A stretch of DNA of 64,000 nt from Candidatus Spongiisociaceae bacterium (GTDB lineage: Bacteria > Actinomycetota > Acidimicrobiia > Spongiisociales > Spongiisociaceae): the NCBI GenBank assembly GCA_965243165.1, contig OZ251535.1, positions 1,217,572-1,281,571 on the forward strand. The letters run 5' to 3'. Numbering within the stretch: position 1 is the stretch's first letter; every line of letters starts with the position of its first letter. Below are positions 9,051 through 22,407 of this stretch, in pieces. The translations under genes were made by a program, and so were the position numbers. A model generated the notes under the pieces. The model saw only the letters and a program-made list of their open reading frames with translations, had not been told where the DNA came from and searched no databases.

Positions 9051-11924
9051 ATGGCAAGAACCGCAGAACCGCATCTGAACCTGTTGTTGGCCCAGGCGTT
9101 GGGCAGACGGCACCCGCGGTGGAAGGTGAGCGCCGAGCAGACCCGGAGGGTGCGCGGCTCGGCCGGACTCCGCCCCGACATCCTGGTCGAGCATCACCGC
9201 GGACAGCCGCTCGTCATCGAGACGGAGGTCGACCCGGCCTCCACTGTCGAACAGGACGCTTCCGCGCGGCTCGGGATGACCCTCGAACCCGGCGGAAAGC
9301 AGGTGGAACAGGCGGCGGCGCTCCGCATCCCGGCTTCACTCACCTACGTCAACCAACCGAACCTGGAAGGAGCGGTGGAGCAGGCCGATTATCAGTACGC
9401 CGCGATTTCCTTGAACGCCGACCGAAGCCTCACCCGCTGGCCCCGGGCCGGATGGCTGACAGGCGGGATCGACGACCTGGCCAATCTGTGCGAGAACATC
9501 GCTCTGTCGGAACAGGCCCTGGCCGCCGGGCTGGCCCGGTTGGAAGAAGCGGTGGGCGACATCTCCTACCACTTGCGGCGGCAGGTTCCCCAGGGTGTGC
9601 TCGACAAGATGGCGGCGGAACTGCGGCAGGAGGACGGAGAACAGACATCCCGCATGGCCGCCGCCGTCATCCTGAACGCCGTTACCTTCTATACCGCCCT
9701 GGCAGGCCGCCAGGACATTTCCACACTCGAAGAAATGCGCGCTCAACGTTATGGAAGGCTCCAACTGTCGACGTTGTTGAAAAATTGGGAGAAGATACTG
9801 CGCGTCAACTATTGGCCGATCTTCCATATTGCCAAACAGCTGTTGATTCCTATCCCGGTCGCCGAAGCCAACCTGGCGCTGGAGCAAGCCGCCGCCGCGG
9901 CAGAAGATCTAACCGGGATCGGTGTAACCACGATGCACGACCTGGCGGGGCGGATGTTCCAGCAGCTGATCACCGATCGGAAATATCTGGCCACCTTCTA
10001 CACATTGCCTCCTTCGGCGGCGATGATCGCCGAGCTGGCCGCCGCCAAACTCGAAATCGATTGGGCCGACGAAGGCTCGGTGGCCGAGCTGCGGATCGCC
10101 GACCTGGCCTGCGGTACGGGGACCCTCCTCTCCGCGGCCTATCAGGCAGTACGCTCCCGCCACCGCCGGGCCGGGGGCGACGACGCCAGAATTCACGCCC
10201 GGATGATCGAGAGCGGCCTGATCGCGGCCGACGTGATGCCCCAGGCCGCTCACCTGACCGCCTCGATGCTCTCCTCCGCGCATCCGAGCATACCGTTCGA
10301 CAACACGAGGGTTCACACCCTGCCTTACGGCGTCGATGCCAAGGGGACGCACATAGGGTCGCTGGAGCTGTTGGGAGTCAATGCTTTGGCTTCTCTCTTC
10401 CCGACCGGCGAACAACAGGCTCACGGCGCCGGAGGGCAGGGCCTGATGAAGCTGCAGCGGGAAAGCCTCGATCTCGTGATCATGAACCCCCCGTTCACCC
10501 GCCCCACCAATCACGAGTCGGCCGAGGTTCCCCGCCCCGATTTTGCGGGCTTGGGCAACGACGACGAGGCGCAGCAGCTCATGGGCGCTCGGCTCAGACA
10601 GATTCACAAGCTCATGGCCTCGGAAAAACTCTTGCTGGATCCGGTAGGAAACGGCAACGCCGGCCTGGCGTCTTATTTTGCCGATCTCGCCCATCTGAAG
10701 TTGAAGGAAGGTGGGGTGATGGCGTTGGTGCTTCCCTTCTCCGCAATAGCAGGAAGGTCTTGGAAGAAACTGAGGGCCATGCTGGCCGGCAATTACACCG
10801 ACGCAACGGTGGTGTCCATCGCCGCCGCCGGTTCGACCGACCGGGCCTTCTCGGCGGACACCGGGATGGCGGACGCGGTGATAACAGCCAAGAAGAAAAC
10901 CAAGAGAGGCAGCAACAAGACGCTGTATGTGAACCTGCATCGCCGCCCGGAGAGTATTCCCGAAGCGGTTGAGCTGGCGCGTTCGGCGTCCCGTACCGAT
11001 CCGGAGGAGGAAGGCGGCTATCTGACGGCGGGCGATGATCTGGCCGGTATGTGGATGCAGGGGTCGCTCGTCGGGGATGGAGGCATGGCCGCCGTCTCCC
11101 GGCCGGGCGCGGCGGTCACCATGTCGCGCCTTCCGGGCGGCAGGCTGGTGCTGCCCCGCCGCGCCCGGCCGCTCCGCCTCCCGATGACCACCCTGGCCCA
11201 GGTAGGCCGGGAGGGGTTGGTTCACCGCGATATAGGCGTCAAGCCCGGCGCGATGGGAGACATACGCGGGCCCTTCGATATCCATCCGATGTCGGGTGTT
11301 CCTGACTATCCGGTGCTTTGGGCCCACTCGGCCGGCCGCGAGCGGCGGCTCGTAGTCGAACCGGACAGTGAGGGCAGGGTCAGGCGGGGTCAGGCGGTGA
11401 AAGCGGCCGAGGTGTGGAAGAGGACCGCCGCCCGGTTGCATTTCAACCTCGATTTTCGGTTGAATTCCCAGAGTCTGGCGGCCTGCTTCACTACCGAGCC
11501 GGTCATCGGCGGGCGCGCCTGGCCCAGCTTCGAACCCCGCGAGGAACGGTGGGCCCTGCCCCTTTTGTTGTGGGCCAACACCACCTTGGGCTTGATGTGC
11601 TTCTGGTGGACCGGTACCCGGCAGCACCAAGGCCGGGTCTGTCTCACTATCACCGCCCTCCCCGACCTGCCGGTGTTGGACCCCCGGCGGCTCGACGGCG
11701 GCCGGCTGGAGGCGGCGGAGGGCATATTCGAAGTCTTCCGGGGCCGCGAGCTGCTCCCTGCCAACGAGGCCTACCGCGACGCGGCCCGCCGGAGCCTCGA
11801 CCGCGCCGTCCTCGTCGATCTGCTGGGCCTGCCCGAAGAGATTCTCGGTTCCTTGGACGTCCTGCGCCGGCAGTGGTGCTCCGAACCGTCCGTCCACGGC
11901 GGCAAATCCACCCGCCCGGACTGA
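9051..11924 (+). CDS. Large nuclease/N6-adenine DNA methyltransferase fusion protein (type IIG/IIL-like restriction-modification enzyme candidate)
   Basis: 957 aa. The N-terminus has a PD-(D/E)xK-like signature (RPDILVEHHRGQPLVIETEVD). The central region has gamma-class MTase motif I (IADLACGTGTLL) and motif IV (LVIMNPPFTRP). An about 400 aa C-terminal region is a possible target-recognition domain. Confidence 0.6.
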   Translation: MARTAEPHLNLLLAQALGRRHPRWKVSAEQTRRVRGSAGLRPDILVEHHRGQPLVIETEVDPASTVEQDASARLGMTLEPGGKQVEQAAALRIPASLTYVNQPNLEGAVEQADYQYAAISLNADRSLTRWPRAGWLTGGIDDLANLCENIALSEQALAAGLARLEEAVGDISYHLRRQVPQGVLDKMAAELRQEDGEQTSRMAAAVILNAVTFYTALAGRQDISTLEEMRAQRYGRLQLSTLLKNWEKILRVNYWPIFHIAKQLLIPIPVAEANLALEQAAAAAEDLTGIGVTTMHDLAGRMFQQLITDRKYLATFYTLPPSAAMIAELAAAKLEIDWADEGSVAELRIADLACGTGTLLSAAYQAVRSRHRRAGGDDARIHARMIESGLIAADVMPQAAHLTASMLSSAHPSIPFDNTRVHTLPYGVDAKGTHIGSLELLGVNALASLFPTGEQQAHGAGGQGLMKLQRESLDLVIMNPPFTRPTNHESAEVPRPDFAGLGNDDEAQQLMGARLRQIHKLMASEKLLLDPVGNGNAGLASYFADLAHLKLKEGGVMALVLPFSAIAGRSWKKLRAMLAGNYTDATVVSIAAAGSTDRAFSADTGMADAVITAKKKTKRGSNKTLYVNLHRRPESIPEAVELARSASRTDPEEEGGYLTAGDDLAGMWMQGSLVGDGGMAAVSRPGAAVTMSRLPGGRLVLPRRARPLRLPMTTLAQVGREGLVHRDIGVKPGAMGDIRGPFDIHPMSGVPDYPVLWAHSAGRERRLVVEPDSEGRVRRGQAVKAAEVWKRTAARLHFNLDFRLNSQSLAACFTTEPVIGGRAWPSFEPREERWALPLLLWANTTLGLMCFWWTGTRQHQGRVCLTITALPDLPVLDPRRLDGGRLEAAEGIFEVFRGRELLPANEAYRDAARRSLDRAVLVDLLGLPEEILGSLDVLRRQWCSEPSVHGGKSTRPD

Positions 11925-11966
11925 CCCCGCCTTGGGGGGAGGTTTGTGTCACACCTCCTCTGTACC

Positions 11967-12971
11967 ATGAACCTCATGACTGTTTCGGATGCATCCGCCG
12001 CCGGTTTCTACGACCGGCTCCATGTCGAGAGCTGGGCGCCCGAATACGGCCCTTCGCTGGAGGCCTCCGACGACGATGCAGGCCCGGTTTCTCCGGTCGA
12101 CCCCACTGTGGAAGCCGAGGACTGGAAGCCCTTCGCGGGCGGCGCCGGGGGCGCGCCCGGCCGGGTGGTGTTCGTGGACGGGGTGCGGCGCATCGAGGCC
12201 CGACTGACCTTGGACCATCCGGTCGAAGGTCCGGTGCCGGGCATCCTGGGGGCGTTCGGGGTGGGGGCGGTGATATGGGACCGGGCAGCCCGGCGTTCCA
12301 GCTTCACCGAGTTGACAGTCGAGCGGCTGGCGGTCATGGCCAAGGGGCTGGCAGTGGACATCGACCGCATCGGCGGCCTTCCCGTTTCCCCCGAATCGAC
12401 GCCGGGCGGCGGCCCGTCCGATTTGACGGCCCACCTCCAGCAGCGGATGCGCAGAGCCGAAGGCAGGCTCGCCGACTCCTTCGCCGGCCCCGATTGCCTG
12501 GTGGTTGCCGACGGCCCTTTCCGCGAGCTGCGCGCCCGGCCGGTGGTCGGTTACATCAAGACGCATCAGACCTCCTACCTGGATGAGGAGCACGGCGCCC
12601 TGATAGGCCGGTTGGGGGCGGGCCAACGCACCCCGCTCTTCCTGATCGACGCCGAACGCCACCCCCGCTACTCCTGGTATCTGCGGCTGGCCGATCTGCC
12701 GGGCGGCCATTCGTGGACCGGGGTGGTGCGCTGCGAGGCGGCCGCCTCCCTCGGGGTCGACCGGGCGGCGGAGATGGCGGGCTGGACGGCCGCCCTCCTG
12801 CCCCGGCTGGCCTCCGAAGGCCACATCGACCGGCGGGCGCCCCAGAACCTGGTGCCGATCGCCGCCCTCGAGCGGGAGCTGCGCAAACACATGGGCGACC
12901 AGAACCTGGCCGAACGCGCCCTGCGCACCGCAGTGCGCCGCCTCCGTCTAGCCGGCGCCGGCGCAGGATAG
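11967..12971 (+). CDS. nurA: NurA-like 5'-3' nuclease (HerA partner)
   Basis: About 335 aa with a VVFVDGVRRIEA segment resembling the NurA catalytic (I/V)DGS region, sitting immediately upstream (10-bp gap) of a HerA-like ATPase. Start uncertain (ATG 11946, 11967 or 11976). Confidence 0.5.
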   Translation: MNLMTVSDASAAGFYDRLHVESWAPEYGPSLEASDDDAGPVSPVDPTVEAEDWKPFAGGAGGAPGRVVFVDGVRRIEARLTLDHPVEGPVPGILGAFGVGAVIWDRAARRSSFTELTVERLAVMAKGLAVDIDRIGGLPVSPESTPGGGPSDLTAHLQQRMRRAEGRLADSFAGPDCLVVADGPFRELRARPVVGYIKTHQTSYLDEEHGALIGRLGAGQRTPLFLIDAERHPRYSWYLRLADLPGGHSWTGVVRCEAAASLGVDRAAEMAGWTAALLPRLASEGHIDRRAPQNLVPIAALERELRKHMGDQNLAERALRTAVRRLRLAGAGAG

Positions 12972-12981
12972 GAGGCCGGCG

Positions 12982-14727
12982 ATGCCAGACCGACGAGACC
13001 GGAGCGGCCCCCGCCCGGTGGGGAGGGTGATCTCCTCGGAGCACACCAACACCCAGGAGTTCCGGGTGGTGCTGAACGACGACAGCTACCTCCAGCTCGA
13101 TGACCTGGTGGTGCTGGAGACCGAGGTGCCGGGGGCGGGGACGGTCCGCACCTACGGTGTGGTTACCGAATCTCAGGCCGTCTACGAGGGGGCGCAGTAC
13201 GAATCCGACACCTTCCGCATCGCCGAGGAGGGCATCCTCCCCGCCGCCAAGATCCGGTCGGCGCAGGCGGCGGTAACCAGGGTCGACCCGGAGCTGTGGG
13301 TGGCGCCCGACCCGGGCGGCGAGGTTCACCGCGCCGCCGGCGAACAGCGCGACAAGGCCCTCTACAAGGACGAAATGGGCCGCCCCCTGCCGGTCGGGAT
13401 CGGGCGCGACATGGAACCCGTGTACGCGGACCTCGACTTCTTCGACGGGCGCAAGGGCGGCCACATGTCGATCTCGGGCATCTCGGGGGTGGCCACCAAG
13501 ACCTCCTACGCCCTGTTCTTCCTGCGCATGCTCACCGCCCGCCCTGCTCTGGTGGGGGAGGGGGCCGCCAACCTGCGGATCCTGGTGTTCAACGTCAAGG
13601 GCGAGGATCTGCTGTGGCTCGACAAGCCCAACCGCTTCCTCGACCAGGATGCAGTGGACGCCTGGAACATCTTGGAGGTGGAACCGGCCCCCTTCCCGCA
13701 GGTGAGCTTCTGGGCGCCGCCCCGCCCCCGGTCCGGGGACGCGGTGCTCCCCGACACGGGCGGGCGGATGGAGGGGATCGAGGCCTTCGCGTGGACGCCC
13801 CGGGAGTTCATCGAGGAGGGCCTGTTGGCCTTCCTGTTCACCGACGCCTCCGACTACAGCAACCAGATCTCCTTCGTGGAGGAACGGGTGCGCGCCCAGT
13901 TGCGGCGGCGGGCGGCGGACGTCGCCGGTGAACCGGGGGCGGTGGTGCTGCGCCCGCCGCCCGACGGGGGCTGGCGCGGCCAACAGGTCCGCCCCGACCA
14001 GGGGGAACGGGTGATCCGCACCCTGGCCGACCTCGTAGAGGCCTTGGACGAATACCTCGACCCCCCCGACGGTTCGGACCCCGACCCGGCCTGGTCGGGC
14101 CGCACCCAGACGGGGACCATCTCGGCTTTCATGCGCCGCCTCCATTCCGCCTCCCACCGGCTCGGCCACCTGGTGCGGGCGGGGCCGAGCCGCCGCATCG
14201 ACCGCCATGCCGCCCAGGTAACCGTGGTCTCCATCCAGACCCTCCACGATCTGGGGCAGCGCTTCGTGGTGGGCGCCCTGCTCAAGGAGGCCTTCGAGGA
14301 GAAGGAGAAGACCGGGCACCGTCTGCCGCTGTCGGTGATCGTGCTCGACGAGCTCAACAAGTACGCCCCGCGGGAGGGCCGCAGTCCGCTCAAGGAGATG
14401 CTGATCGACATCGCTCAACGGGGCCGCTCTCTAGGGGTGCTGCTGGTGGGCGCCCAGCAGACCGCCTCGCGGGTGGCGCCCGAAGTGCTGGAGAACGCCG
14501 CCCTGCGGGTGGCCGGACGCCTCGACGCCGCCGAAGCCGCCCGGTCCGAATACGGATGGATGCTCCCCTCCACCCGCGCCCGGGCCCGCCTCCTGAAACC
14601 GGGCACCATGGTGCTTTCCCAGCCCGCCATCCCGGTGCCCCTGGTGCTCACCTTTCCGTTCCCGGCCTGGGCCACCCGCCGGGAGGAAGCCGAAAACCCG
14701 GGCGAAAACCCCTTCGAGGGCCTTTAG
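12982..14727 (+). CDS. herA: HerA-like FtsK/HerA-superfamily ATPase (DUF87), deviant P-loop
   Basis: 581 aa. N-terminal HAS-barrel-like region, then HMSISGISGVATKTS (aligns to the HerA H-x-A-I-x-G-x-T-G-S-G-K-S block but has T/A where canonical G residues are expected) and a Walker B LSVIVLDELNKYAP. Confidence 0.65.
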   Translation: MPDRRDRSGPRPVGRVISSEHTNTQEFRVVLNDDSYLQLDDLVVLETEVPGAGTVRTYGVVTESQAVYEGAQYESDTFRIAEEGILPAAKIRSAQAAVTRVDPELWVAPDPGGEVHRAAGEQRDKALYKDEMGRPLPVGIGRDMEPVYADLDFFDGRKGGHMSISGISGVATKTSYALFFLRMLTARPALVGEGAANLRILVFNVKGEDLLWLDKPNRFLDQDAVDAWNILEVEPAPFPQVSFWAPPRPRSGDAVLPDTGGRMEGIEAFAWTPREFIEEGLLAFLFTDASDYSNQISFVEERVRAQLRRRAADVAGEPGAVVLRPPPDGGWRGQQVRPDQGERVIRTLADLVEALDEYLDPPDGSDPDPAWSGRTQTGTISAFMRRLHSASHRLGHLVRAGPSRRIDRHAAQVTVVSIQTLHDLGQRFVVGALLKEAFEEKEKTGHRLPLSVIVLDELNKYAPREGRSPLKEMLIDIAQRGRSLGVLLVGAQQTASRVAPEVLENAALRVAGRLDAAEAARSEYGWMLPSTRARARLLKPGTMVLSQPAIPVPLVLTFPFPAWATRREEAENPGENPFEGL

Positions 14728-14742: not shown

Positions 14743-15912
14743 ATGCGCATCCTCCATACCTCCGACTGGCACATCGGCAAGAAGATCGGCCGCTTCGACC
14801 GCCTCGACGAATACCGGGAGGTCATCGACGAGGTAGCGGACGCAGCCGAGCGGGAACAGGTCGACCTGGTGGTCCACAGCGGCGACGTGTTCGACCGGCC
14901 CATCCCTCCGATGGCCTCCCTCGCCCTCGGCCTGGAGGGCCTGGTCCGGCTGACCGGCGGGGGGAAGAGGCCGGCGGCGGTCATCGCCGGCAACCACGAC
15001 TCGCCCGCCCTGTTCGAGATATTGGCGGAGTTCATGGCCGCCCGCAATGTGCATCTGGTGGGGGAGATCAAACCCCCGGACGAGGGCGGGGTGCTCGAGC
15101 TCGACACTCCTGGCGGGCGGGCGGTGGTTTCATGTTTCCCGTTCTTGAGGGAGGGCCGGGCCTTCAACGTGTGGACGCCGCCCGGCGGTCAGTACAAGAA
15201 GTACGCCGACCGGCTGGGGAGCATCGCCAAGGCCTACGCCGAGTCCGCCCACCGGAAGGCGGGCGGCGGTGCGGTTACGGTGCTGGCCGCCCATTTCCTG
15301 GTGGGGGGCGCCAAGGTGCACGGCCACGGCGCTCCCAGGGGGGAGCGGGCCCTCCACATGGGCGAGGTCTACGCCGCCGATCCCCGGGCCATCCCGCCCG
15401 GCCCCCAGTATGTGGCGCTCGGCCATATCCACGCCCCGCAGCGGGCGCCGGGGGCGGCGGCCCCGGCCGAGTACGCCGGCTCGCTCCTGGAGCTCGACTT
15501 CGGCGAGGCGGGGGAGCAGAAGCGGGTGGTGGTGGTGGACGTCGAGCCCGGCCTCCCCGCCCAGGTGCGCTCGGTCCCGCTGGCGGGCGGCCGCCGGCTG
15601 CTGCGCCCGGCCGGAACCTGGGAGGAGATCGAAGATATGGAGGGCCTCGACGAGGCGTTCCTCGACCTCACGGTGCACACCGAAGGCCCTGACCCGGGGC
15701 TGGCCGACCGGGCCCGGGAGCGGTTCCCCTATCTGGTCAAGGTGCGGGCCGAGTATCCGAAGGCCGAGTCGGAGCGGCGCTCGCGGGAGGGGCGGGCCGT
15801 CTCCGACCTGTACGGGGACTACTACCGGCGCATCGAGGGGGTCGAACCTCCGGAGGAGCTCATCGAGGCGCTGCGGAAGCTGATGGAGGAGGAGGCCGGT
15901 GCGCCCGCTTGA
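14743..15912 (+). CDS. sbcD: Exonuclease SbcD / Mre11 family nuclease
   Basis: MRILHTSDWHIG... calcineurin-like phosphoesterase motifs (GDVFD, GNHD, GHIH). 389 aa. Confidence 0.85.
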   Translation: MRILHTSDWHIGKKIGRFDRLDEYREVIDEVADAAEREQVDLVVHSGDVFDRPIPPMASLALGLEGLVRLTGGGKRPAAVIAGNHDSPALFEILAEFMAARNVHLVGEIKPPDEGGVLELDTPGGRAVVSCFPFLREGRAFNVWTPPGGQYKKYADRLGSIAKAYAESAHRKAGGGAVTVLAAHFLVGGAKVHGHGAPRGERALHMGEVYAADPRAIPPGPQYVALGHIHAPQRAPGAAAPAEYAGSLLELDFGEAGEQKRVVVVDVEPGLPAQVRSVPLAGGRRLLRPAGTWEEIEDMEGLDEAFLDLTVHTEGPDPGLADRARERFPYLVKVRAEYPKAESERRSREGRAVSDLYGDYYRRIEGVEPPEELIEALRKLMEEEAGAPA

Positions 15913-18436
15913 ACTTCGTCTTCGGAACTTCCGGTCTTTCCGCGGGGAGGGCCACACCTTCGACTTCCGCGGACGGCGTCTGATCGGGGTGGTGGGTCCG
16001 ATCGGCTCGGGCAAGAGCACCATCCTCGATGCGATCGCCTTCGCCCTCTACGGCTGCACCCCCCGCATCAACAGAGAAACCAGGTCGCTCATCCACCAGC
16101 AGGCCGACCACGCGGCGGCGGCGCTGCGGTTCGAAGTCGATGGGGAAGTATGGGAGGCGGTCCGCAACCTGCGGCGGAGCGGCCAGAGCCAGCACGCCCT
16201 GTACAAGCTGTCGGCCGACGAACCGGACGCCGGCGAGGTCGAGAAGGTGTTGCAGCAGCGGGAGGTGAATGCCCGGGTCCAGGAGCTGCTCGGCCTGGAC
16301 TTTCCGGGGTTCAGCCGGTCGGTGCTGCTGGCTCAGGGCCGATTTGCCGAGTTCCTGAACGCCCGCCCGGCGGAGAGGGACAAGGTGCTCAAGGGGGTGT
16401 TCGGCTACGAACGAATCGGCTTGATCCGCGATCTCGCCCGCCGAGCCGCCGCCGCCGGAAAGCACGAGATCGAAAAGCTGGACATCCGCTTGGAGAACGC
16501 CCGGGCGGCGGAAGAACGCCTGTCGAAGCGCCGGGAAGAGCTGGCCGCCGCCGCCGGCCGTCTGGCGGAGCTGGAGAAAGTGCGGCCCGCGTTCGACGAA
16601 CTGGCCGAGCGCATCCGCGCCGCTTCCGAGAAGAGGGGCAAAGCCGAAGACCAGCTGGCCGAACTCCGCCGCCGGGCAAAGGATCTGCCCAACAAGACCA
16701 AGGCGGAGCGCAGCCTGAAAAAGGCCCGCAAGGTGCGCGCCCTGCGGTCCGAGGCCGAGCGGAAGCTGGCGGCCGCCGAGCAGGGGGCGGCCGAGGCGAA
16801 GGAGGCGGCCGAGGCCGAGCGGGTGGAGGAGCGCGAGCAGAGTTGGAACGAAGCCAACCGCTTGGTGGTGCGGCTGGAGGACCGTCAGAAGGCGGCCGAA
16901 GAAGCGTCCGCAGCTGCGGCCAAAGCAGCCGCCGAGGTCGCGGAGGGTGAGAAGTCGGTCGAGGCCGCCCGGTCGAAGCTGGCCTCCGCCGAGGCGGGCT
17001 TCGCCCGCGCCGAAGCGGCCGCGCAGGAAGCCGACGCCGATCTGAGCCGGGCCGAGAAGCTGCTGCAGGACGCCCGGCGCGCCGACATGGCCGGCTCGCT
17101 GCGGGAACAGCTGGCCGAAGGGGACGACTGCCCGGTGTGCGAACAACCCGTGCTTCGGGTTCCCCCCGTTGCCGCCGCCGGCGCCGCAGCCGCCGAGAAG
17201 GCCGTGAAGCAAGCGCGCTCCGCGCAGAAGGGATCGGCGGACCGCCTCCGCACCGCCGCCGGAGCCCTCGGGGCGGCCAAAGCCGCTCTCGAAGGGAAGG
17301 AGCAGCGCCTCGACGGATTCCGCCGCCGGGTCGAGGCGGCGCGGGAAGCGGAAGCCGAACGAAGCGCCCTTCTCGACCGCAGCCGCCGCGAGATGGACCG
17401 CCTGCTGGGCGAGGGCGACCCCGCCGCCCTGCTGAAGGCGGAACGGGCCGCCCTGAATGCTTTTCACAGCAGGGCGGCCGAGGCCCGGCGGGTACTGGAG
17501 GCCGCACAGAAAAGGTTCAACAAAGCCGGCGCGGAGGAGAAGCAGGCGCAGCGGGCGGTGGCGGATCTGCGCATCCGGATCGCCGCCCTCGCCGCCCGGC
17601 TGCCGGCCGGCCCGGAGGTTTCAGAGGACGACCCCGAGGCGGTCAGGGCGGCGTTGACGGCCCTCCACGCCGACTGGAAACAGGTCACATCTGATCTGCA
17701 GCGGGCGGCGGCGGAGGCGAGAACCGAAGCCGAGGCGGAAGCCGCCCGGCTGGCCGAGCTGCGGGCGGAGCACGGTGTCGAGGGTTCGATAGAGGAGGCC
17801 TCGGCCGCGGCCGGCGCCAAACGCGAACAGCTCGAGGCCTACATCGAACAGGACGAACAGCTGCTGGCCGGCGCGAAGGAGCTGGCGGCGGAGAAAAAGG
17901 CCCATCGCGCCGAGGTCCGTTTGCACGAGCGGCTGGTCAAGGATCTGACCGACGCCCGTTTCGTCCGCTTCCTGTTGGACGAAGAGCGGGCGGCGCTGGC
18001 CGGTCTGGGTTCGGAGCACTTCGAGCGGCTGTCGTCGGGCCGGTACCGCTTCACCGAGGACGGTGAGTTCTCGGTGGTGGACCTCAACGCCGCCGAGGCG
18101 GTGCGGCGGGCGGACAGCCTGTCGGGCGGCGAGACCTTCCTGGCGTCGCTGGGGCTGGCGCTCGGTCTGGCCGAGATGGTGGGGCGCCGGGGCGGCCGCT
18201 TGGACGCCTTCTTCTTGGACGAAGGCTTCGGCGCCCTCGACCCCGAGCACCTGGACCTGGCGATGGAGGGCATCGAGTCCCTGGTGTCCGCCCGCGAGCA
18301 ACGCCTGGTGGTGGTGGTTTCCCACATCCCCGAAGTCCAGAACCGCATCGAAGACCTGATCGTGCTCGGCAACCACCCCATCACCGGCGACTCGAAGGTG
18401 GTGTCCGGCGGAGCCGGCCGGCCGCAGCCTTCTTGA
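15899..18436 (+). CDS. sbcC: Exonuclease SbcC / Rad50-like SMC ATPase
   Basis: N-terminal Walker A GPIGSGKSTILDAIAFALYG, a long coiled-coil with a CPVC zinc-hook, and a C-terminal signature LSGGETF plus D-loop. Overlaps the sbcD stop by 14 nt. Confidence 0.85.
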   Translation: MRPLELRLRNFRSFRGEGHTFDFRGRRLIGVVGPIGSGKSTILDAIAFALYGCTPRINRETRSLIHQQADHAAAALRFEVDGEVWEAVRNLRRSGQSQHALYKLSADEPDAGEVEKVLQQREVNARVQELLGLDFPGFSRSVLLAQGRFAEFLNARPAERDKVLKGVFGYERIGLIRDLARRAAAAGKHEIEKLDIRLENARAAEERLSKRREELAAAAGRLAELEKVRPAFDELAERIRAASEKRGKAEDQLAELRRRAKDLPNKTKAERSLKKARKVRALRSEAERKLAAAEQGAAEAKEAAEAERVEEREQSWNEANRLVVRLEDRQKAAEEASAAAAKAAAEVAEGEKSVEAARSKLASAEAGFARAEAAAQEADADLSRAEKLLQDARRADMAGSLREQLAEGDDCPVCEQPVLRVPPVAAAGAAAAEKAVKQARSAQKGSADRLRTAAGALGAAKAALEGKEQRLDGFRRRVEAAREAEAERSALLDRSRREMDRLLGEGDPAALLKAERAALNAFHSRAAEARRVLEAAQKRFNKAGAEEKQAQRAVADLRIRIAALAARLPAGPEVSEDDPEAVRAALTALHADWKQVTSDLQRAAAEARTEAEAEAARLAELRAEHGVEGSIEEASAAAGAKREQLEAYIEQDEQLLAGAKELAAEKKAHRAEVRLHERLVKDLTDARFVRFLLDEERAALAGLGSEHFERLSSGRYRFTEDGEFSVVDLNAAEAVRRADSLSGGETFLASLGLALGLAEMVGRRGGRLDAFFLDEGFGALDPEHLDLAMEGIESLVSAREQRLVVVVSHIPEVQNRIEDLIVLGNHPITGDSKVVSGGAGRPQPS

Positions 18437-18455: not shown

Positions 18456-19385
18456 TCACCGGTGAAGCGGTTCACCCGATTCGATGTCGTATCGTTCCAG
18501 ATAGTCCTCGATGCTGCGGACGTACGCCCGGATCTGGGCCCCGTTGGGATCGTCGGCGGGGAACCAGCCGGCGGCGTATGAAACCGCTCGGCAGGCCGCC
18601 CGCGCCAGGCCGGCCAACATCTCCGAAGAGGCCTCGAGGCCTTGCCCGGTGCTGCGGCAACCGGCTTCGGTGCGCCATGGCGTGATCGCATCGGCGCCGG
18701 GCGGCTCCAACAGAGGGAGGACGGCCCGGCGGTGAGTTTCCGAGAGCTGGGCGCAGAGCCTGCCTATGTTGTGGCCCCGCGCTGCCCGGTCAGGGTCGGC
18801 CTCTAGATGTATCAGCGTCTTGAGCGACAGTTCCACCACCATATGAGCATTCCCGCAACCGCTTTGCAGCCGTTCGTTCATACGCATCCATATATCCACC
18901 ATTTCGCTGCTGCTTCGTTCGATTCGACCGGGGCCGATATGCTCTAGCAACTCACCCAAAGCAACTCTTGCTTCCTCCAATCGGGCAAGGGATTCCGCGT
19001 AGTCGCTGTCGGGCATCACCATCTCCTTGTTCCAATCCACATCGACGCCAACAGGCCGGTTCACGAGAACCCTCCCATGCCGGGCGATCCGCCCTTCGAG
19101 CGATGTGCGCACCTTGGTGGTGCGCATCCTCCACTCCGCTCGGTCGGTCACGCTCACATCCACCGGGAACTCCACGGCCCGCTCCGCCAGTTCCTCCAGC
19201 TCGCACCCCTTTTCCCGGCGTCTTTCGTAGTCCAGATCGTCGAAGACGGCCATCAGGTCGATGTCGCTGTGCTCGTCGGCTTCCCCGCGGGCCACCGAAC
19301 CGAACAGCACCACCCGGCCCGCCCCCGCCTCCGCCAAGGCCGCCGCCGCCCGTTCCGCGGCGGCCCGCACCGGCGCCGCCGCCAT
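18456..19385 (-). CDS. Nucleotidyltransferase (MNT/pol-beta-like) - HEPN domain fusion protein
   Basis: N-terminal GSVARGEADEHSDIDL (GS...DxD NTase motif). C-terminal helical region with an R-x4-H motif (RAARGH), which is HEPN-like. Its start ATG overlaps the stop of the upstream gene (ATGA). Confidence 0.6.
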   Translation of the reverse strand: MAAAPVRAAAERAAAALAEAGAGRVVLFGSVARGEADEHSDIDLMAVFDDLDYERRREKGCELEELAERAVEFPVDVSVTDRAEWRMRTTKVRTSLEGRIARHGRVLVNRPVGVDVDWNKEMVMPDSDYAESLARLEEARVALGELLEHIGPGRIERSSSEMVDIWMRMNERLQSGCGNAHMVVELSLKTLIHLEADPDRAARGHNIGRLCAQLSETHRRAVLPLLEPPGADAITPWRTEAGCRSTGQGLEASSEMLAGLARAACRAVSYAAGWFPADDPNGAQIRAYVRSIEDYLERYDIESGEPLHR

Positions 19386-19684
19386 CAGAACTCCGTGAGC
19401 ATCCGGGCGTCTACATTGGTGATGTAGTCCATGGGGTCGAAGGACATCTCACCGCGGCGGGGGTCGGCGTAGTAGCGCTGCTCGGCCTCCTCGAAGGTAC
19501 CGTCCCCGTCGTAGTGGACGATCCACACGTACTGATAGGCCGCCTCGACCAGCCAGGGGCCCTCCCGCCGGAAGCCGTGGTCGAGGCGGATCGGCAGGAG
19601 CTCCTCGTCCACCTTGGCGGCGAACTCCTCCAGCGTTCCGGGCTTCAGGTCGTAGATGCGGAGTTGAGCGGGCATGGCTCTCAT
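19385..19684 (-). CDS. NIPSNAP-like small protein (99 aa)
   Basis: MRAMPAQLRIYDLKPGTLEEF... resembles the NIPSNAP/Dabb N-terminus. ATGA overlaps with both the upstream and downstream genes. Confidence 0.45.
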   Translation of the reverse strand: MRAMPAQLRIYDLKPGTLEEFAAKVDEELLPIRLDHGFRREGPWLVEAAYQYVWIVHYDGDGTFEEAEQRYYADPRRGEMSFDPMDYITNVDARMLTEF

Positions 19685-21294
19685 GGTACACGGCCTCCTT
19701 CGGGTTTCTTCACCGGGGCCTTCGAACGCCTTCCGGCCCGCTCGAGGTACAGGTCCAGCGTTTTCTCCCTCGCCCACACCAGATCGATCAGGTCTTTTTT
19801 CGGGATCTGGAGCTCCCCGGCGGAGATGATCTCGCGGCGGAACTCGTCCAGCGGGATGCGGCGGTCCTTCTTCCGCTGGTTGTGATACGGGCACAGGGGC
19901 GCCCGGTTGGGCAGCCGGTTGGACCCCTCCGCCGACCTCGGGTCGATGTGGTCCAGATGGAAGTTGATGGGCTTGCGGATGACCTCCCCGTCCGGCCTCC
20001 GGTTGGCGAAGCCGCAGCACCAGGCTTTATAGCCGGACAGCTCCAGCAGCATGACCAGCATCTCCCGAGCCGGTATATCGGACGCCGGAACCTTGTACCT
20101 GCGTTCGCGGGGCTTCATGGCGGGGGCGGGTTTCGGGTCTTGGGTAACCCGTTCGGGGATGCCGTCGGGGCGGATCATCCGGATATCGGCGTCGGCGATC
20201 CAGGCGGTTTGCCTGCCCTCCCTCATCTCCAGCTCGGGGTTCTGGCCGTCCACCGCGTAATGGAACTTGTTGAACTGCCGCCTGACCACGGTCATGGCGC
20301 GCGGGTTTATGTCGCAGGCGATCCACTGCCTGCCCAGCCGTTCCGCGGCCACCGGAACATAGGCGCACCCGGCGAACGGATCCAACACCACGTCGCCGGG
20401 GTTGGAAGCAGACCGGATGATGCGTTCGGCGAGAGCTACGGGTTTCTGGGTGGGATAGCCGGTCCGTTCCGGATCAGTGCTTCCGATATAGGGAATGTTC
20501 CACACATCGCGCATGTTCACTAGGTTGTACACTCCGTGTCTGTCCTGGAAAAATTCGGCCTGTCCTCCTCCGTAGTTGACCACACCTGGTCTACGCGATT
20601 TGGATTTCGTATATGACTTCTCTTTCGGTTTGTTATAGGTCCATTTGCTGGTTTTTGAATAAAAAAAGATAGTGTCGTGTTTCTTGGAGAATCGAGTGCG
20701 CGATGCCCCGCCTGTTCTATACGACCAAACTATTTCGTTGCGGAAGTTCTTCTGTCCCAACACCGCGTCCAGCACAAGACGCAGATAGGAGTTGGCAGTG
20801 GGGTCACAGTGCAAAAAAACCGAACCGGTTTGTTTCAGCACCCGGTGCATTTCAATGATGCGGATCGCCATGTAGGCCAGGTAGGCAGCGTGCCCATCCG
20901 AATGAGAGTAACGGGCGGCGTCTATGACCTTTGCCACCGCCTCGTACCGGCCCTCGATCTTGACCAGCCACTCCTCGTGGATGTCTTTTTCCCAGGCCCA
21001 GACGTCGTGGAACCGGGCGATAGCTTCTCCGTTGTCCGGCCAATCGATGTTCGCTTCGGCGGCGGCGGCGCGGTTGTGGATTCCCCAGCCGGCCAGGGTC
21101 TGTTTCTCCAAGGCCAGCTCTTCGGCGCTCAGAGGAGGCTTCAGCGCGCCGGTGAAGGCGTAGTTCTTGGCGAACGGCGGGTCGGTCACGATCAGATCCA
21201 CCGTTTCGTTGTCCATGGCCCGGAGCATCTCCAGGTTGTCGGCGATCACCATGCGGCGGTTGAGGGGGTGCGGGGAGTCGAACTGGCTGGTCAT
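19681..21294 (-). CDS. Beta-class N6A/N4C DNA methyltransferase fused to a C-terminal HNH endonuclease domain
   Basis: Motif IV DLIVTDPPF comes before motif I VLDPFAGCAY (N6_N4_Mtase order). The C-terminus has CCGF...HLDHIDP...N...CPYHNQ, an HNH signature. 537 aa. Confidence 0.75.
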   Translation of the reverse strand: MTSQFDSPHPLNRRMVIADNLEMLRAMDNETVDLIVTDPPFAKNYAFTGALKPPLSAEELALEKQTLAGWGIHNRAAAAEANIDWPDNGEAIARFHDVWAWEKDIHEEWLVKIEGRYEAVAKVIDAARYSHSDGHAAYLAYMAIRIIEMHRVLKQTGSVFLHCDPTANSYLRLVLDAVLGQKNFRNEIVWSYRTGGASRTRFSKKHDTIFFYSKTSKWTYNKPKEKSYTKSKSRRPGVVNYGGGQAEFFQDRHGVYNLVNMRDVWNIPYIGSTDPERTGYPTQKPVALAERIIRSASNPGDVVLDPFAGCAYVPVAAERLGRQWIACDINPRAMTVVRRQFNKFHYAVDGQNPELEMREGRQTAWIADADIRMIRPDGIPERVTQDPKPAPAMKPRERRYKVPASDIPAREMLVMLLELSGYKAWCCGFANRRPDGEVIRKPINFHLDHIDPRSAEGSNRLPNRAPLCPYHNQRKKDRRIPLDEFRREIISAGELQIPKKDLIDLVWAREKTLDLYLERAGRRSKAPVKKPEGGRVP

Positions 21295-21357
21295 CGCGTC
21301 TCCTTGCCCGGCGAATGTTTCACGTACCGCCTCAATGTAAACCGAGGGTGTGACATT

Positions 21358-22407
21358 CTACGGGCCGGGCTGCGGCCGGGGGGCGATCCCGTGGCCCTCC
21401 GCTTTGGCCGACCGGCCCATCAGCTCGGCCAGCGCCGTCGGCACCGTTTCCCCCTCGTAGAGGATGCGCCCCACCGCCTCGGCGATGGGCATCTCCACGC
21501 CGAGCCGGGAGGCCAGGTCGAGCACCGCTCTGGTCGTTTTCACCCCCTCCGCCACCATGTTGGTCTCCGCCAGGATCTCGTCGATCCGCCCCCCCTCGCC
21601 GAGGCGGCGCCCCACCCGGTTGTTGCGGCTGCGGGGGCTGCCGCAGGTGGCGATCAGGTCGCCCACCCCCGCCAGCCCTCCGAACGTCAGGGCCTGCCCG
21701 CCCATGGCGATGCCCAGGCGGGTGATCTCGGCCAGCCCCCTCGTTATCAGGGCGGCCAGGGTGTTCATCCCGAAACCCAGCCCGGCGGCGGCCCCCGCCG
21801 CGATGGCCATGACGTTCTTGGCGGCGCCCGCCGCCTCCACCCCGATCACGTCCGGGTTGGTGTAGACCCTCAGCCTCGGAGAAGCGAACAGGCGCTGGAT
21901 CCGGCGGGCGGCCTCCCGATCCCCGACGGCTATCACGGCGGCGGCCGGCTGCCCCTCCATGATCTCGACCGCCAGGTTGGGGCCGGACAGCGCGCCCGCC
22001 GCGCCCGGGTCGTGCCCCCCCAGCACCTCCAGGGTCACCTGCGACATGCGCAGGCCGGTGCCCTCCTCGATGCCTTTGGCCAGGCTGATGACCGGCGTCG
22101 ACGGGCTGATCAGCCCCTGCGCCTGCTCCAAGACCGCTCGGTATCCGTGGGAGGGCACGGCCACCATCACCAGGCCCGCGCCCTCCAGCGCCTCCTCCAG
22201 CCGGGATGAGGCCGTAATCCCCTCCGGCAGGGTGAAACCCGGCAGGTAGTCAGGGTTCTCGCGGCCGGCGTTGATCATCCCGGCCAACTCCGCCCGCCGC
22301 GCCCACAGCGACACCTCGGCCCCGGCCGAAGCCAGGCACGCGATGGCCGTACCCCAAGAACCCGCGCCGATCACCGCCGCCCGCATAGGAGGATCGTAGG
22401 ACATCAC
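21358..22407 (-). CDS. gpsA: NAD(P)H-dependent glycerol-3-phosphate dehydrogenase
   Basis: AVIGAGSWGTA Rossmann motif and overall GpsA-like sequence. The start could instead be the internal MRAAVIG. Confidence 0.85.
   Translation of the reverse strand: MMSYDPPMRAAVIGAGSWGTAIACLASAGAEVSLWARRAELAGMINAGRENPDYLPGFTLPEGITASSRLEEALEGAGLVMVAVPSHGYRAVLEQAQGLISPSTPVISLAKGIEEGTGLRMSQVTLEVLGGHDPGAAGALSGPNLAVEIMEGQPAAAVIAVGDREAARRIQRLFASPRLRVYTNPDVIGVEAAGAAKNVMAIAAGAAAGLGFGMNTLAALITRGLAEITRLGIAMGGQALTFGGLAGVGDLIATCGSPRSRNNRVGRRLGEGGRIDEILAETNMVAEGVKTTRAVLDLASRLGVEMPIAEAVGRILYEGETVPTALAELMGRSAKAEGHGIAPRPQPGP

Follow-up and report, generated by a model that had tools for sequence, protein, structure and literature searches.

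The subject of this report is a block of three consecutive genes on the minus strand (positions 21294 to 18456) of a 64,000-nucleotide stretch of contig OZ251535.1 from a Candidatus Spongiisociaceae bacterium, hereafter called the window. The genes encode a DNA methyltransferase (MTase) fused to an HNH nuclease (MTase-HNH), a NIPSNAP-family protein and a nucleotidyltransferase (NT) fused to a HEPN domain (NT-HEPN). We propose, with a probability of about three in four, that this locus is a composite and not a module: two unrelated accessory genes would have been added independently beside a NIPSNAP gene belonging to the genomic backbone. The original prediction, made by reading the sequence of the window, had taken the three genes for an operon with ATGA overlaps at both junctions, and for a defence or addiction module that extends a defence island from the neighbouring sbcCD cluster.

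MTase-HNH (537 amino acids (aa), 21294..19681) is followed by NIPSNAP (99 aa, 19684..19385) and NT-HEPN (309 aa, 19385..18456). The coordinates of these open reading frames (ORFs) bear out the predicted gene order, and profile and family annotation agrees with every domain assigned beforehand (methyltransferase, HNH, NIPSNAP, nucleotidyltransferase and HEPN). Directly upstream of MTase-HNH, 63 nt away and on the same strand, lies gpsA, the gene of glycerol-3-phosphate dehydrogenase (21358..22407, minus strand; Pfam NAD_Gly3P_dh_N/C, 1e-46 and 3.5e-52). At the opposite end NT-HEPN is convergent with sbcC, whose stop lies at 18436, and the spacer between the two genes measures 19 nt.

The composite nature of the block is suggested above all by comparison with other genomes, whose loci are designated here by L numbers. 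Relatives supplied this context, as exact-sequence look-ups of the window NT-HEPN and of one paralogue returned no record. In every related locus gpsA adjoins ychF. L001 has the same order as the window, with gpsA, MTase-HNH, NIPSNAP and NT-HEPN placed between ychF and sbcC-sbcD-herA-nurA. L003 retains this order as well, with NT-HEPN broken into fragments of 111 aa and frameshifted pieces. In L005-L008, gpsA, MTase-HNH and NIPSNAP are followed by a second MTase-HNH and then by sbcC. Four other related genomes have no MTase-HNH between gpsA and NIPSNAP and no NT-HEPN either. NIPSNAP comes 53 nt after gpsA in L093-L095, followed by arginase and aldo-keto reductase genes on the other strand and then by sbcC-sbcD; in L009 it comes 47 nt after gpsA and is followed by unrelated genes. 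NIPSNAP is likewise found without either partner in L010. The site between gpsA and NIPSNAP is polymorphic for presence and absence, filled in the window, L001, L003 and L005-L008 and empty in L009 and L093-L095; MTase-HNH occupies it in a sub-lineage only. What stands between NIPSNAP and sbcC varies as well: NT-HEPN, a decayed NT-HEPN, a second MTase-HNH, or arginase together with aldo-keto reductase.

In more distant genomes the three genes are not found together. Neither MTase-HNH nor NIPSNAP lies within 10 kb of any of 80 NT-HEPN loci, the best 80 of at least 201 confirmed in GTDB species representatives (L011-L090). Similarly, the 11 MTase-HNH loci outside the syntenic set (L004, L091, L092, L096-L103) all lack NIPSNAP and NT-HEPN, and their sole common family is MTase-HNH itself. 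Across these loci the gene set does not recur in unrelated genomes or contexts. The common strand, the overlapping junctions of the window, the lack of a terminator-like site between the genes, the occurrence of the same triad in L001 and purifying selection on all three genes would fit one translationally coupled, interdependent defence or addiction module, but we consider such a module very improbable in view of these counts, of the NIPSNAP gene standing beside gpsA without partners in four genomes, and of overlaps that are not conserved. The triad, moreover, is confined to immediate syntenic relatives, where it is already breaking up: NT-HEPN is a pseudogene in L003 and its position is held by the second MTase-HNH in L005-L008. 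What endures of the predicted module is the character of two of its members, MTase-HNH and NT-HEPN being conflict-type accessory genes; their union into a module does not.

The third member, NIPSNAP, matches PF07978 over residues 7-97 (E 1.4e-6; 28.8 bits against a gathering cut-off of 22.3), and its homologues, 66-92% identical, are annotated as NIPSNAP. Its ratio of nonsynonymous to synonymous substitution rates (dN/dS) against the L001 orthologue is 0.163. From its placement we regard it as part of the conserved backbone and as the gene that ancestrally lay downstream of gpsA, because it directly follows gpsA without MTase-HNH in L009 and L093-L095. The original prediction, which counted NIPSNAP as a module member, had itself named a middle gene from a housekeeping operon as the finding that would tell against the module, and this is how the gene appears in those four genomes.

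The junctions are only partly as predicted. MTase-HNH and NIPSNAP overlap by 4 nt in an ATGA (19684-19681), a reading that requires NIPSNAP to start at the first of two in-frame ATG codons; the second lies 9 nt downstream, and a GGAGG is located 9 nt upstream of the first. The junction of NIPSNAP and NT-HEPN is a TGATG with a 1-nt overlap at 19385, and not another ATGA. Because overlaps of 4 nt and 1 nt are the most frequent junction types between same-strand prokaryotic genes, they are weak evidence when taken alone. Nor does conservation lend them weight as signs of coupling, since all three orthologous loci compared have gaps instead. In L001 the first junction measures 36 nt and the second 239 nt, in L003 the values are 35 and 241 nt, and in L006 MTase-HNH and NIPSNAP are 7 nt apart and the second MTase-HNH begins 144 nt downstream of NIPSNAP.

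In L001 (7762-8000) and L003 (9908-10148), but not in the window, NIPSNAP and NT-HEPN are held apart by some 240 nt of AT-rich spacer, which may be left over from the arrival of NT-HEPN. The tight junctions of the window would be recent local events, later than the arrangement itself. MTase-HNH would have acquired a C-terminal extension reading into the start of NIPSNAP, giving the ATGA overlap, and deletion of the AT-rich spacer would have brought NIPSNAP and NT-HEPN into overlap. A scan of the block found no terminator-like site on the minus strand, the sole such site being on the plus strand. Together with the common strand and the short or overlapping junctions this makes co-transcription plausible, and gpsA, MTase-HNH, NIPSNAP and NT-HEPN are probably carried on one transcript. 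The predicted operon is in this respect tenable as a unit of transcription, not as one functional module.

We envisage the assembly of the locus as follows. In the ancestral backbone of this lineage of sponge-symbiont Acidimicrobiia, ychF / gpsA-NIPSNAP would have preceded sbcC-sbcD-herA-nurA. A solitary MTase-HNH cassette, equipped with its own leader or promoter, would have entered between gpsA and NIPSNAP, and an NT-HEPN gene from an expanded lineage-specific family would have taken the variable slot that separates NIPSNAP from sbcC. Between the window and L001, the synonymous divergence (dS) of the three genes is 0.40-0.46, versus 0.46-0.78 for flanking genes; these values are close, and the block has therefore been inherited vertically since the split from L001.

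The leader of the MTase-HNH cassette is about 65 nt long (21295..21360, minus strand) and opens with a conserved box, GTAGAATGTCACACC, that includes a TAGAAT sequence (21360..21355); an AAGGAG ribosome-binding site (21305..21300) closes it. The TAG stop codon of gpsA overlaps the TAGAAT, which resembles a -10 element. The GTAGAATGTCACACC box is present upstream of all MTase-HNH copies in L001, L003 and L005-L008 (both copies), and a near-identical box, GTAAAATGTCACATCC, precedes the MTase-HNH gene of L004, which lies in an unrelated genomic context. We infer that the leader is the cassette's own promoter and 5' untranslated region, with TAGAAT as the -10-like element; a sigma-70 promoter scan found nothing, so the promoter is proposed from conservation alone. 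A riboswitch or other RNA regulator upstream of the methyltransferase was considered and rejected, as nothing in Rfam matched the leader at E <= 1 and no conservation of an RNA fold was seen.

The second MTase-HNH of L005-L008 is preceded by a duplicate, about 70 nt long, of the 3' coding end of gpsA together with the TAGAAT leader (L006 7857-8000). It therefore arose by segmental duplication, followed by replacement of its specificity and nuclease modules.

MTase-HNH matches PF01555 (N6_N4 MTase) with an E-value of 1.4e-44. Motif IV (DPPF, residues 38-41) and the S-adenosylmethionine (SAM)-binding motif (FAGCAY, residues 307-312) are both invariant in our protein alignment (A2), and their order, DPPF first and FAGCAY last, places the enzyme in the beta class. 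The closest solved structures are those of M.RsrI and M.MboIIA (PDB matches, about 5e-18), and with the DPPF motif they suggest that the enzyme probably methylates N6-adenine. The nuclease half scores just above threshold in the window (PF01844, 21.7 bits against a cut-off of 21.4). The same model matches 25 of 26 MTase-HNH homologues, at best with 2.9e-10, and a profile built from the last 143 residues recovers the HNH domains of Cas9 and IscB (3.7e-4). The nuclease core occupies residues ~425-478 (WCCGFAN...NFHLDHIDP...NRAPLCPYHNQRK; 19861..20022, minus strand); D448-H449, N463 and N472 are invariant in A2 and align to the DH...N...N motif of the Cas9 HNH domain.

Between the two catalytic motifs of the methyltransferase, residues ~181-275 (20470..20754, minus strand) form a variable block of the alignment, which we take as the putative target-recognition domain (TRD). 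The MTase-HNH gene as a whole is poor in GC (0.50-0.65 versus 0.70-0.75 in the flanks), with its minimum over these residues; GC drops to 0.50-0.52 inside the methyltransferase, which we read as a mark of foreign origin, and the composition profile gives 0.35-0.54 for the variable region against ~0.70-0.75 in the flanks. When the window gene is compared with the second L006 copy by sliding identity, the first 540 nt at the 5' end are 78-91% identical, and the TRD is unalignable (46-54% at the nucleotide level). The HNH module of that second copy is of another type (CxxC), carried by L004 too. The MTase-HNH family is mosaic: its catalytic core is conserved, and its low-GC TRD and HNH modules are exchangeable.

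The family is widespread, with thousands of database matches. Full-length homologues at about 50% identity are common, for example in metagenome-assembled genomes (MAGs) of Chloroflexi, and one 3.48-Mb contig carries five paralogues. This particular HNH module falls into only ~100 clusters at 50% identity, at the C-terminus of proteins of 500-640 aa. Against the L001 orthologue the dN/dS of MTase-HNH is 0.157. At L004 (9606-11759), a 73% identical MTase-HNH has a GmrSD (DUF262/DUF1524) type IV restriction gene 22 nt downstream, and the two genes possibly make up a small defence cluster.

The simplest interpretation of MTase-HNH is a single-polypeptide restriction-modification (RM) enzyme with the logic of Type IIC, whose TRD would serve both activities. 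Motif IV and the SAM-binding motif are in one chain with a nuclease domain whose catalytic residues are intact, and the gene is solitary, having no separate cognate endonuclease or methylase gene and no neighbour common to the 11 independent loci. Guided by this common TRD, the enzyme would methylate sites in the host DNA and its HNH domain would cut at or near unmethylated ones; with both activities in one chain, the gene would be self-sufficient and somewhat selfish. Type IIC/IIG enzymes such as MmeI, BpuSI and the Thermus TspGWI/TaqII family similarly join nuclease and methyltransferase in one chain with a common, exchangeable specificity region, and MTase-HNH resembles them further in lacking a separate cognate endonuclease gene and in having paralogues with different TRDs. 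They have an N-terminal PD-(D/E)XK nuclease and a gamma-class methyltransferase and measure ~900-1100 aa (PMC3384240, PMC3817140). In contrast, MTase-HNH, known here from sequence alone, has 537 aa, with a beta-class methyltransferase first and a Cas9/IscB-like HNH domain at the C-terminus. If the assignment is true, a compact RM enzyme of 520-600 aa with swappable specificity would add a new architecture to Type IIC and might yield new restriction or nicking specificities.

The distribution of MTase-HNH also recalls free-standing HNH homing endonuclease genes, which share with it precise insertion between conserved genes and presence or absence among relatives. MTase-HNH differs from them in bearing a full DNA methyltransferase and in not having been found in phage genomes. 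It could itself be a mobile homing gene: HNH would cut the empty intergenic target, repair would copy the gene in, and the methyltransferase would protect the resident genome or act as an orphan epigenetic methylase. The presence/absence polymorphism at a precise intergenic site, the single genes between housekeeping genes in several phyla, the multiple copies of some genomes and the leader that moves with the gene, along with a piece of the gpsA 3' flank in the second copy, would all suit such an element. We nevertheless think it rather unlikely, as the insertion contexts have no flanking gene in common, the surroundings of the block, when searched for repeats, showed neither target duplications nor terminal repeats, inverted or direct, of the sort that betrays a transposon or integration site, and an exchangeable TRD is more typical of the diversification of RM specificity. 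In phage, plasmid and viral collections, too, there were matches to the MTase domain only and none covering at least 80% of the fusion; a phage or plasmid origin of MTase-HNH could accordingly not be shown. The RM and homing readings of MTase-HNH are mutually compatible.

NT-HEPN, the second accessory gene, consists of a nucleotidyltransferase domain (residues 23-97; 19319..19095, minus strand) and a HEPN domain (residues ~128-298; 19004..18492, minus strand). The first half matches PF01909 (E 3.5e-11) and also PF18765. Among 98 members of the family, G29, S30, D41, D43, D81, W85, W118 and K120 are invariant or nearly so, and the nucleotidyltransferase site (hG[GS]...DxD) is of polymerase-beta type and intact (GS...DxD...D). 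The HEPN half is invisible to Pfam on the window sequence. The domain matches PF05168, in 13 of 50 family members, and not a HepT-type model, and the family profile reaches the HEPN structures 1ufb and 1o3u. R172, E185, K189, H205, W237 and Y243 are kept in 91-95 of the 98 members. The four-helix fold with an Ex3[KR] motif is present, and the Ex3K, a histidine in the insert between helices 2 and 3 and a basic residue ending helix 3 assign the domain to the 'HEPN-T' group of PF05168, for which fusions to minimal nucleotidyltransferases (MNT) have been listed (Anantharaman et al. 2013, PMC3710099).

In analogy with MntA/HepT and FhepTA, the NT-HEPN family would be a self-regulated HEPN toxin, held off by auto-nucleotidylylation of a conserved tyrosine. 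FhepTA is a fused MNT-HEPN toxin-antitoxin (TA) protein silenced by auto-oligoAMPylation (2026, PMC13000451). NT-HEPN resembles it and the type VII HepT-MntA systems in having an N-terminal minimal nucleotidyltransferase (GS...DxD intact) joined to a HEPN domain at the C-terminus within one chain, a family tyrosine near the HEPN motif region, and the character of an accessory gene. This tyrosine, Y243, belongs to a W-[R/H]-x4-Y motif and is shared by 93 of the 98 members; the motif could, speculatively, be equivalent to the FhepTA modification site. FhepTA (276 aa) has a HepT-like HEPN domain with an R-phi-xxxH RNase motif and an adjacent tyrosine (PMC13000451). NT-HEPN, unlike it, has ~310 aa, a PF05168-type HEPN domain, a conserved VDWxKEMVMP linker, a motif arginine that is not conserved and a conserved histidine in the helix-2/3 insert. 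It also falls short of the NCBIfam MntA_antitoxin model (41 bits against a cut-off of 60).

The window copy itself has no Tyr243. It is the only one of the 98 members with cysteine at this position (codon at 18657-18659), and the L001 orthologue has histidine. The L003 orthologue is a pseudogene. The key residue Tyr243 has disappeared independently at this single locus. On account of Y243C in the window, Y243H in L001 and the L003 pseudogene this copy looks relaxed or altered, and it may be decaying or changing function. Its dN/dS against L001 is 0.275. NT-HEPN proteins with and without Tyr243 represent natural variants bearing on the auto-AMPylation model shown for fused MNT-HEPN.

An alternative function for the family, which appears possible if somewhat doubtful, is that of substrate-modifying nucleotidyltransferases of the KNTase/ANT/Lnu type, whose HEPN domain binds the substrate; the expansion of the family would then reflect varied small-molecule or protein substrates in the sponge environment. 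HEPN domains fused to nucleotidyltransferases usually have no RNase motif and may be substrate-binding domains (PMC3710099), but the scores of NT-HEPN with the curated NCBIfam models of ANT(4') and Lnu are far under their cut-offs. The neighbourhoods are heterogeneous and often contain conflict-type genes (Fic, PLD-SNF2 helicase, DUF4143-type ATPase), the tandem paralogues are diverging, and the conserved His205 and Tyr243 resemble the active sites of HEPN-T/AbiV type and the AMPylation tyrosine of HepT; all of this argues against the substrate-modifying alternative.

Homologues of NT-HEPN come almost entirely from MAGs of Acidimicrobiia. In the reference-genome scan nearly all of the 80 loci kept belong to such MAGs and bear names such as Ca. 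Spongiisociaceae, Ca. Poriferisodalis and Ca. Aldehydirespirator; these names and published work on Acidimicrobiia associated with sponges point to sponge symbionts. Genomes carry several unlinked NT-HEPN loci. The 3.19-Mb contig holding the exact NT-HEPN sequence of the window encodes three further paralogues, and five of the 80 loci kept are on one 3.0-Mb chromosome (OZ241842.1). Tandem arrays occur as well, with five paralogues (311-318 aa, 11-12 nt apart) at L002 (6108-10936) and three at L011 (8000-10870) and L067. The L002 array adjoins genes for a ResIII helicase and a DUF4011/AAA_11/AAA_12/MTES_1575 helicase. The expansion of NT-HEPN in sponge-symbiont Acidimicrobiia is striking and lineage-specific. 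Compared with the known HEPN-T proteins of PF05168 (TT1696, AF0298, the sacsin HEPN domain; PMC3710099), NT-HEPN is a sub-family nearly confined to these symbionts, with unlinked loci and arrays of up to five, and our literature searches found no description of this expansion.

When a recurrent partner of NT-HEPN was sought across the 80 loci, only heterogeneous neighbours were found. The commonest is a P-loop ATPase at 16 of the 80 loci (within L040-L087, for example L068 11107-12795), restricted to a distant subgroup; judged by its sequence it would be AAA_14/DUF4143-like. Other neighbours, identified by reading representative sequences, include Fic and PLD-SNF2 helicase genes. Sponge symbionts are enriched in defence and toxin-antitoxin genes, and the NT-HEPN expansion adds a lineage-specific paralogue family to this enrichment.

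Several points weigh against the composite reading or its parts. The restriction-modification view of MTase-HNH is founded on domain logic alone, since literature searches on MTase-HNH fusions found no characterised relative and, specifically, no characterised beta-class example. The direction of change, insertion versus loss, was deduced from GC content, the leader and distribution, not from a phylogeny. Purifying selection acts on all three genes, which have stayed together since the common ancestor of the window and L001, so that a functional link specific to this lineage is conceivable. Finally, the arginine of the Rx4-6H motif is not conserved in the NT-HEPN family: the window has R200-x4-H205, and R200 is kept in 25 of 98 members, H205 in 91. 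Such a state is typical of non-toxic, substrate-binding HEPN domains fused to nucleotidyltransferases (PMC3710099), and it makes the toxin reading of the family uncertain.

The composite reading places novelty in the components and not in the triad, with MTase-HNH as an uncharacterised variant of single-chain RM enzymes and NT-HEPN as a lineage-specific expansion of a known fusion. It also serves as a caution that tight ATGA and TGATG junctions between genes with suggestive domains can result from unrelated accessory genes accumulating at a permissive site beside a housekeeping gene. A bolder proposal, which we offer tentatively and against the odds, is that MTase-HNH represents an uncharacterised class of autonomous single-gene RM or homing elements, with their own promoter and modular TRD and HNH, colonising the gaps between genes of sponge-symbiont housekeeping operons, and that NT-HEPN(T), with at least 201 copies, might be a new family of self-AMPylating HEPN toxins or defence proteins peculiar to sponge-associated Acidimicrobiia.

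On the other side of NT-HEPN, the plus strand carries a nurA-like gene (11946-12971; Pfam NurA, 7.6e-5), a gene for a herA-like ATPase (12982-14727; HerA model, 1.4e-5), sbcD (14743-15912; Metallophos/SbcD_C) and sbcC (15899-18436; SMC_N/SbcC_Walker_B). nurA-herA-sbcD-sbcC occupy the same position in L001, L003 and L005-L008, and sbcC-sbcD do so in L093-L095. Clusters of herA, nurA, mre11 and rad50 are known as operons for the resection of double-strand breaks, and by this analogy we read the conserved cluster as a repair operon of the backbone, and not as the defence island that was thought to extend from it. PADLOC matches to LmuB and mad3 raised the candidate of sbcCD as a defence system; it was rejected, as the similarity is that of generic SMC/Rad50 ATPases and the cluster is conserved in position.

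A further accessory gene lies beyond this cluster. An ORF of 957 aa (9051-11924, plus strand), located between the GSDH gene (end ~8833) and nurA, has features of a gamma-class N6-methyltransferase (DLACGTGTL, and NPPF at residue 479) and also weakly matches the models of MAD2, PglX and Alw26I-type MTase. L001 and L005-L008 lack it and have GSDH immediately next to nurA. The GC content dips to ~0.60 at 10400-11000, inside the ORF. Its product may be a Type IIG/IIL-like RM enzyme. The neighbourhood is a permissive site for RM-type insertions and no coherent island. Elsewhere in the window, at 48415-48588 on the minus strand, a stretch of 58 aa that resembles the SAM-binding part of the methyltransferase (40% identity, E 2.5e-4) may mark a further methylase gene of N6_N4 type.

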